A stretch of DNA of 64,000 nucleotides, taken from NCBI RefSeq assembly GCF_048403405.1, contig NZ_CP183129.1; one strand, 5' to 3'. Position 1 is the first letter of the stretch. Each line of letters starts with the position of its first letter. Position numbers: made by a program. Of the stretch, positions 16,901-19,900 are shown in pieces. Source of the stretch: Escherichia coli. GTDB lineage: Bacteria > Pseudomonadota > Gammaproteobacteria > Enterobacterales > Enterobacteriaceae.

Positions 16901-19900
16901 TGCTGTTGAGCGCATGGGGATTGTTCGATTTCTGGAACTGGCTGCAAAACGGTGCGGGGCAGAAAACTGTAGATATCCTGATCCGTATCGCACTCATTCT
17001 TTTCTTCTCGGCGGTTGGCTGGACAGTGCTCGCCAGTTTGATCGAAAACCGGCTGGCTTCGGATATTCATGGCCGCCCGCTACCCAGCGCCCGCACGCGT
17101 ACCCTGCTTACGCTGTTTCGTAACGCGCTGGCGGTGATTATCAGTACCATCACCATCATGATTGTGTTGTCGGAAATCGGCGTCAATATCGCGCCATTGC
17201 TGGCAGGTGCCGGTGCATTGGGGCTGGCTATCTCTTTTGGTTCGCAAACGCTGGTGAAAGATATTATCACCGGGGTATTTATTCAGTTTGAAAACGGCAT
17301 GAACACTGGAGATTTGGTGACTATCGGGCCGTTGACCGGCACTGTGGAACGGATGTCGATTCGCTCCGTGGGCGTGCGCCAGGATACCGGGGCGTATCAC
17401 ATCATTCCGTGGTCTTCGATAACCACCTTTGCTAACTTTGTCCGCGGCATTGGTTCGGTAGTGGCAAATTATGATGTTGATCGCCATGAAGATGCTGATA
17501 AAGCCAATCAGGCACTGAAAGATGCGGTAGCGGAATTAATGGAAAACGAAGAAATTCGCGGGTTGATTATCGGTGAACCGAACTTTGCCGGGATTGTCGG
17601 CTTAAGCAATACCGCATTTACACTGCGTGTTTCGTTCACCACGCTGCCACTCAAACAGTGGACGGTCCGCTTTGCCCTCGACAGCCAGGTGAAAAAACAT
17701 TTCGACCTGGCGGGTGTTCGCGCGCCGGTACAGACTTATCAGGTGCTGCCAGCTCCGGGCGCGGCCCCGGCTGAACCGCTGCCGCCGGGGGAGCCAACGC
17801 TTTAACGTTGGCGATTGACAAAACGGCGGCGCTGCTCGTCGTTCATAAAGGTCCAGGCAATAAAGCGACTCTGCTTTTGCCCCTGGGCCATCTCTTTTTA
17901 ACCACCTTCACCGCGCCAACGTCCGTCAGGGCACGATACAATGGCGGTAAGTTTTCACCACGAGATACCAGTGAGGTAAACCACATCACCTGCTTCGCGA
18001 AGCCTTTGCTCTCTTCAATCATCTTTTTGATAAAAGCGACTTCACCGCCTTCACACCACAACTCCTGTTGCTGACCACCAAAGTTCAGTGCATCGTCTTT
18101 GTTTAGCCCCAGGTTACGGCGTTTACGTTCACTACCTGCCCGTGCCGCAGCGGCGGAATCGTGGAATGGCGGGTTACACAAGGTCGCGTCGTATTGCTCG
18201 TTTTTATGGATGATGCCGTTAAAAATCGCCCCACTCTCTTTTTGCCGACGCAGACGAATGGCGCGGTTAAGCCCCGGATTAGCACTGATGATCGCCTGCG
18301 CACTGCTTAACGCCTGGCTGCTGGTTTCACTACCGGTAAAACGCCAGCCATATTCATGTACGCCAATCAGCGGGTAAATACAGTTCGCACCAACGCCAAT
18401 ATCCAGAATGCTGGCATTCGCTGGAATTGTTCCGCTTGCTTCTGCCAGTAAATCGGCAAGGTGATGAATATAATCCGCCCGGCCCGGTACTGGTGGGCAG
18501 AGAAAACCGTCGGGGATATCCCAGTTCGCTACGGCGTAAAAATGGGCCAGCAACGCCTTATTGAGCGCCTTCACCGCCAGCGGATTGGCAAAGTCTACGC
18601 TTTGCTCCCCGGCGGGTGTAAGCGTGAGGAATTGCCTGAGTTCAGGGTTGACCTGACAAAGCGTGGCGAGATCGTAGCGGCTGTGATGACGGTTGCGCGG
18701 ATGCAACCCCGGTTTCTGGGCGGACATAGCATTCTCCTTTAAGCAGCGGCGTAAGATACCCGCATAACGCGACAGGGTAAATATCTGGCTGCGTTTATCA
18801 TTCCCAAAAACCTTAACATGACTATGGTTTATGGCAATTCACCATAAAAATCAGCATCATGCATGTTATTGATTTGTCTTATTTTGTAAAAATATATCGT
18901 TCAAAAAACAAGCACATCTCTGTCAATTTTTTGCGTCATTTTCATCGCCCAGGCGACCTACACTTATCAGGCACTACCCGTTGTATTTATGAGGATGTCA
19001 TTATGAAAAAGTGCCTCACACTACTGATTGCCACCGTCCTGAGCGGAATCTCTCTCACGGCTTATGCCGCGCAACCGATGAGTAACCTGGACAGCGGTCA
19101 GCTACGGCCCGCCGGTACCGTTTCGGCAACTGGCGCATCAAACCTAAGCGATCTGGAGGATAAACTGGCAGAAAAAGCGCGCGAACAAGGCGCGAAAGGT
19201 TATGTCATTAATTCCGCGGGCGGAAATGACCAGATGTTCGGTACTGCAACCATCTACAAATAACCCCACCAACGTAACTGCATTCGCCTCTGGATGCAGT
19301 TTTCGCCTGTTTTGTAATCAAAAAACATCAAATATGAACACAATGTAAATAAATGTATTTCTTTTTCGCGCAATGGGTGATAGAAAATCGCGCCAAGTGA
19401 TAATGCTTATCAAAATTATTATCACTTGCACGAACGCTATCACGAGATTAACAGTGGCATCGCATCCGCAGAGAGGCTTTCTCGTGGCAGTGAAAATTTC
19501 AACATATAAGAAAAAGTCACCTGCAAAATGGAAAACAATCGCAATTTCCCTGCCAGACAATTTCATTCGCTCACGTTCTTTGCCGGTCTTTGTATTGGCA
19601 TCACGCCTGTGGCTCAGGCACTCGCCGCCGAAGGGCAAGCAAACGCGGATGACACGCTGGTTGTCGAAGCATCAACGCCTTCGCTTTATGCGCCACAACA
19701 ATCTGCTGATCCGAAATTCTCGCGTCCGGTAGCGGATACTACCCGCACGATGACGGTGATTTCTGAACAAGTGATTAAAGATCAGGGCGCAACCAACCTT
19801 ACCGACGCGCTCAAAAACGTCCCCGGCGTGGGTGCGTTTTTTGCGGGTGAGAACGGTAACTCCACCACTGGCGACGCCATTTATATGCGTGGTGCCGATA

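Follow-up and report, generated by a model that had tools for sequence, protein, structure and literature searches.

The rlmF gene in the window (the whole 64,000-nucleotide stretch of Escherichia coli DNA analysed here) lacks one base in a homopolymer run near its 3' end, and its native C-terminus is consequently read out of frame. With chances a little above even, the missing base would be a homopolymer under-call in the assembly, and a very recent one-base deletion is the main alternative. The frameshift is an everyday sequencing miscall or else a harmless knockout of recent origin, and represents no new kind of feature. It is also already known: PGAP has flagged it in other genomes, and RefSeq lists its product under an accession.

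The rlmF reading frame

The window carries glnHPQ, ybiO, rlmF, mcbA and fiu of the E. coli chromosome, and the order mcbA-rlmF-ybiO-glnQ around rlmF is the same as in relatives. The earlier note on this DNA had the rlmF ORF stopping at 17843 after 294 codons with an aberrant tail, and the ORF list agrees (Table 1). On the coding strand, the sequence around the run reads GTT AAA AAG AGA TGG. One extra A in the run yields a protein of 308 aa with a TAA stop that is the complement of 17802-17804 (translation of 17802-17897, minus strand); as the same note anticipated, this is the length of the RlmF (308 aa, 927 nt) annotated in all close relatives. The short protein retains V276-K277-K278, and its residues 1-278 are identical to those of RlmF in close relatives. 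Thereafter, residues 279-308 are exchanged for 16 out-of-frame residues, a tail not present in the intact RlmF of relatives; the loss therefore amounts to 30 residues, one more than had been proposed.

Against the NCBIfam equivalog model for RlmF (NF008725), the window ORF scored 420.7 bits over profile positions 1-283 of 293, compared with 455.1 bits for an intact relative. Both scores lie above the curated cutoff of 302 bits, which explains why the short protein bears the name RlmF in databases. By curated-model score, gene context and motifs, the gene is RlmF (YbiN), the 23S rRNA m6A1618 methyltransferase. The window ORF shares with E. coli RlmF residues 1-278, the context, the motifs and the equivalog assignment, but differs from it in the last 30 residues, in place of which stand 16 unrelated ones, and in a Pfam domain (PF05971) that breaks off 18 residues short of its end.

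Table 1. Coordinates of the features discussed, as window positions unless another record is named
Feature	Position	Strand	Description	Basis
rlmF ORF as written	17843-18727	minus	294 codons plus TGA stop (17843-17845); ATG at 18727	ORF list
Homopolymer run, site of the one-base loss	17895-17899	minus (coding)	A5 on the coding strand, T5 on the plus strand	sequence and alignments to six relatives
Out-of-frame codons replacing the native rlmF C-terminus	17846-17893	minus	16 codons	translation
Native codons for RlmF residues 279-308 plus TAA stop (17802-17804)	17802-17894	minus	intact, displaced to the -1 frame	translation
Slippage context in rlmF (leaky-deletion reading)			GGUGGUUAAAAAGAGAUGGCC	
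ybiO, mechanosensitive-channel gene, convergent	15580-17805	plus	741 aa, TAA stop 17803-17805	ORF list; same length and annotation in relatives
Overlap of the ybiO CDS and the restored rlmF CDS	17802-17805	both	TTAA, 4 nt	sequence; same overlap in PGAP coordinates of relatives
mntR of CRE389 / ECKH-257	L025:495-961 / L026:497-963		equivalent gene at about window 7554-8021, normal in the window	

Near-identical genomes

A 12-kb query retrieved six near-identical complete genomes, namely MS 69-1, 4621, TUM1226, isolate 68, TUM14771 and GN02461. Each of them is one base longer than the query, and the alignments place the extra base at the rlmF run. The frameshift is therefore not a chance pattern, as a single base is missing exactly at the run. 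All six carry a run of six A residues (A6) and an intact rlmF of 927 nt (WP_001275941.1), and therefore the frameshift is private to the assembly of the window. The earlier note had allowed for related strains sharing the short form; in this lineage, the long form was found in 6/6 near-identical genomes.

An alignment with MS 69-1 over the full 64 kb shows two SNPs, each private to MS 69-1, together with the rlmF base loss and a 13-bp deletion in dinG in the window. Compared with TUM1226 (CP135719) over 49.7 kb, there were no SNPs, and the rlmF and dinG deletions were the only differences. The private changes of the window are thus two indels and no SNP. The window holds 292 runs of at least five bases (211 of five, 61 of six, 17 of seven and three of eight), and relative to MS 69-1 no homopolymer length change other than that in rlmF was detected over 64 kb, either in the 80 other runs of at least six bases or in the 291 other runs of at least five. 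As no other run differs, the source assembly is much cleaner than those that typically carry the five-base run (A5).

Distribution of the five-base run among E. coli genomes

We counted run lengths in 5,426 complete E. coli genomes with short queries, the flanks of which could seed a match only when the run length was identical; among genomes with identical flanks (those with SNPs in the flanks being left out), A6 was found in 3,480, A5 in 16 and A7 in none. A5 therefore accounts for 0.46% of the A5-plus-A6 genomes with matching flanks. With a 241-nt query around the site, matches were obtained in 5,421 of the 5,426 genomes, and only two were gapless. These two are Polish hospital-wastewater isolates, in which both rlmF and ybiO are annotated as "frameshifted" by PGAP; as they diverge from the window by about 1.8% over 6 kb, they are not its relatives. 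PGAP flags rlmF as "frameshifted" in 16 complete E. coli genomes.

By source, the 16 A5 genomes comprise four of the Polish set, eight of Taiwanese sets, two labelled "UID", APEC37 and EC77. Divergence from the window is about 2% for the carriers, which belong to four or more unrelated backgrounds and group by recent sequencing project, not by phylogeny. Of the 17 A5 carriers examined, 16 had lost single bases from other runs (4-8 bases long) within 3-20 kb; examples are T8 to T7 in ybiO, G5 to G4 in mntR, and frameshifts in dps and rhtA. In APEC37, rlmF, ybiO, dps and rhtA are all frameshifted within 7 kb, and strain 639, another carrier, has two more homopolymer losses. In a typical A5-carrying assembly, between one and nine additional errors occur per 6-20 kb. 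At least two carriers are locally clean (locus L013 of Logan SRR13771547 and strain 605).

The exact 294-aa product occurs in databases under WP_001448092.1, EJE71886.1 and other accessions, named from E. coli and Shigella sonnei, on 42 contigs. The NCBI records with this protein are nearly all chromosome-scale contigs, and none falls in the range of 20-200 kb. Ten loci encoding it were about 2.3% diverged from the window, and nine of the ten had extra indels within 6-7 kb; in eight of these nine, the indels included one-base losses in runs of 5-8 bases (T8 to T7, T7 to T6, G5 to G4, A6 to A5). ybiO is broken into different pieces in each such assembly. The short-form records, including the 16 genomes flagged by PGAP, share with the window an identical product and the same A6-to-A5 change, whereas they sit on other backgrounds (about 2% diverged), mostly with homopolymer losses nearby that the window lacks.

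The Taiwanese carriers allow a closer view. At least 56 records of their lineage have A6 in a 12-kb sequence that is otherwise identical. CRE389 and ECKH-257, which come from different projects, share both the rlmF A5 and an mntR frameshift caused by a G5-to-G4 homopolymer loss, but strain 605 of the same lineage has the rlmF A5 with an intact mntR. As to whether A5 is a real, inherited allele in this lineage, the compared sequences lean towards an artefact. Taken as a whole, the A5 pattern (recurrent, deletion-only, linked to projects and accompanied by other homopolymer losses) resembles systematic long-read base-calling errors.

Segments kept and lost in the short protein

Pfam PF05971 (Methyltransf_10) spans residues 3-296 of intact RlmF (model positions 2-299). 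The window ORF departs from the domain after residue 278, so that 18 domain residues are lost and the domain is incomplete. The SAM-binding motif and the NPPF motif, the latter being the catalytic motif in METTL16-type methyltransferases (PMC5871880), lie upstream of the frameshift, and both align with the corresponding motifs of METTL16. A single-sequence AlphaFold model of intact RlmF was too poor for use (mean pLDDT 42.8), and we used the METTL16 alignment instead. RlmF residues 6-297 align with the methyltransferase domain of human METTL16 (E = 1e-38; PDB 6DU4, 6B91, 2H00). At the C-terminal end of the alignment, EFCQGRTMRWALAWSF of METTL16 is paired with 16 native RlmF residues, with a conserved QG...aW.F. 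In METTL16, this segment forms the beta6-beta7 hairpin, with R279 and R282 of the RNA groove, and strand beta7, which runs antiparallel and closes the seven-stranded sheet of the core, residues 79-288 (PMC5871880). The translation and the METTL16 alignment indicate that the corresponding segment is encoded in the window only out of frame, at 17805-17894. METTL16 is homologous to RlmF, C-terminal motif included, but it comes from a eukaryote, acts on different RNAs and has an additional C-terminal domain, and it served here only to infer the role of the lost segment. If the truncation is genuine, it would most likely abolish activity, as the protein would lack a strand of the core and the hairpin that binds RNA.

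A single rlmF deletion affects neither growth rate nor ribosome assembly; infection by phage T5 is reduced only in the rlmF rlmJ double mutant (PMC11619597). A real loss of rlmF would be tolerated, because no growth phenotype is reported for its deletion. The frameshift is biologically of little consequence.

Base-calling error or genuine deletion

The earlier note offered a homopolymer sequencing error and a real truncation as the two explanations; both survive our analyses, and the comparison leans to error. If the base was under-called, the organism would carry A6 and an intact 308-aa RlmF, with a stop overlapping that of ybiO as in other E. coli. We infer a technical cause for this particular A5 from its recurrence in unrelated assemblies that also carry other homopolymer losses. 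The change agrees with known residual long-read homopolymer errors in being a one-base loss in a run of at least six, deletion-only and recurring across unrelated strains and projects, but differs in that the usual companion errors are absent from the window (0/80 other runs of at least six). The rarity of variation at the run and its restriction to the deletion direction (A5 in 16 and A7 in none of 5,426) count towards an artefact, as do the A6 of the otherwise identical Taiwanese records and the fact that the short protein comes almost entirely from chromosome-scale contigs. So does the composition of the private changes: by rough estimate, two indels with no private SNP are unlikely as real mutations on so short a branch. 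On the other side, the clean remainder of the window, in which no other run is changed, counts against an artefact. Of the two marks of an artefact considered, a one-base run change without counterpart in near-identical genomes was observed, and other homopolymer errors, sought across the 64 kb against MS 69-1, were not.

The alternative is that replication slippage in A6 produced a genuine, very recent one-base deletion and thereby a private null allele of rlmF, which we regard as a serious possibility at somewhat less than even chances. The product, at about the same level of expectation, would keep the SAM-binding and NPPF motifs and lose the hairpin and beta7; it would probably misfold or fail to bind 23S rRNA, so that A1618 stays unmethylated. 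Several observations fit a real deletion: (i) no other homopolymer discrepancy occurs in 64 kb; (ii) the second private frameshift, the 13-bp loss from dinG, is not in a homopolymer and is no typical base-calling error, which suggests that the strain can carry real recent frameshifts; (iii) the lost residues 279-296 lie within PF05971 and align to the METTL16 hairpin and beta7 (PMC5871880); (iv) rlmF is dispensable (PMC11619597); and (v) A5 is also seen in the locally clean carriers, L013 and strain 605, so real A5 alleles may exist. Nevertheless, the change is common to no relative, the same change is tied elsewhere to error-prone assemblies, the combination of two real indels and no SNP is improbable on the short branch unless loss of function was selected, and the inactivity of the truncated protein is deduced from homology. 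A miscall and a real null allele cannot be separated by sequence alone.

The two explanations differ in what they would mean. If the A5 is an artefact, miscalls recur at the A6 run and leave about 0.3% of complete E. coli genomes with a false rlmF pseudogene, the short product of which has even been given its own RefSeq protein accession. A real A5 would make the strain a natural rlmF knockout usable for studying the loss of m6A1618; laboratory knockouts exist already and show no defect in growth or ribosome assembly.

Slippage and phase variation

The deletion places the tetramer A_AA.G in the zero-frame register at 17897-17894 (GUU AAA AAG), and a -1 slip there restores the native frame. The lysine tRNA would slip from AAG (17896-17894) to AAA (17897-17895), the next codon would be GAG (17894-17892), and the product would be exactly wild-type. 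One can thus picture a real but leaky deletion, with low-level wild-type RlmF and some A1618 methylation kept; we consider this very improbable. In E. coli, no other -1 tetramer is as efficient as A_AA.G, for which 5.6% is attained next to a strong pseudoknot, but tetramers without a stimulator are barely above background, 0.147% against 0.112% (PMC4066793), and the predicted fold of the 84 nt downstream is no more stable than that of shuffled sequences (z = 0.07). Relatives encode RlmF in one frame, with no sign of a selected recoding signal. Self-correction by slippage would be marginal and unselected, and programmed -1 frameshifting is rejected, there being neither a downstream stimulatory structure nor a conserved two-frame arrangement.

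It is also conceivable, with only a slim chance, that the rlmF A6 is a real hotspot which repeatedly switches off m6A1618 in natural lineages, here beside recurrent dinG deletions, that such losses are perhaps selected (e.g., through lower susceptibility to T5-like phages, cf. the rlmF rlmJ double mutant), and that A_AAG slippage passes trace amounts of wild-type RlmF. A phase-variable (contingency) switch turning rlmF off and on reversibly has next to no likelihood: the same one-base loss does occur on several backgrounds, but the tract has only six bases, only the shorter variant was seen (A7 in 0/5,426), and A5, at 0.46% of A5-plus-A6 genomes, is rare and found mostly in carriers with unrelated homopolymer losses, on which grounds we rejected it.

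The convergent ybiO gene

The stops of ybiO and the restored rlmF overlap on opposite strands, as had been pointed out earlier; the letters assigned to the overlap need amendment, since 17802-17805 is TTAA and TTTAA occupies 17801-17805. The 4-nt overlap is annotated by PGAP in every relative examined (e.g., at 18543-18546 in one of them), and is a normal, conserved arrangement in E. coli, not a peculiarity of this strain. No difference from relatives was found inside ybiO in the alignments. An effect of the frameshift on ybiO is rejected, as the gene is intact and ends about 90 nt before the run.

Two further observations concern ybiO. Its T8 run (window 15717) is T7 or T6 in seven unrelated assemblies with the rlmF A5 (L001, L002, L011, L012, L016, L018 and L019), and is a second recurrent miscall site, 2 kb from the rlmF run; the window itself has the normal T8. 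Separately, the glnQ-ybiO spacer (window about 15465-15580) is short in the lineage of the window, and other lineages, such as 118UI and B1.H1.18, have about 150 bases more. Between the aligned blocks, the spacer measures 152 nt in the longer lineages versus 8 nt, and the extra bases may be an inserted intergenic repeat element.

dinG and other observations in the window

The second private indel removes 13 bp at 27509/27510 and so breaks dinG, which lies on the minus strand at about 25750-27890; relatives carry CAGTGCTGGCAAG at the deletion site. The deletion junction was absent from all 5,426 complete genomes, and exact look-up of eight candidate DinG fragment products found none of them in a collection of 15 billion proteins. 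Two other assemblies have different small deletions in the same ~270 bp of dinG: isolate 68 (OX030728) lacks 13 bp corresponding to window 27730-27742, and in strain 639, which is unrelated, 11 bp are missing at about window 27545-27556. These small deletions may mark a hotspot, result from selected loss of dinG or be artefacts of the assembler.

Between dinG and rhlE lie two large genes (window about 28171-30183 and 30488-32173), the products of which are annotated in relatives as hypothetical (WP_000340612.1 and WP_000551718.1); in two relatives, a variant of the first, WP_000340611.1, bears the label 'type III effector'. In K-12, this position is presumably occupied by ybiA instead, and the pair looks like a lineage-specific insertion. 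Finally, just downstream of the rhtA stop, we noticed a perfect 30-nt palindrome (window 12003-12032), probably a terminator hairpin, which in MS 69-1 aligns with its own reverse complement.
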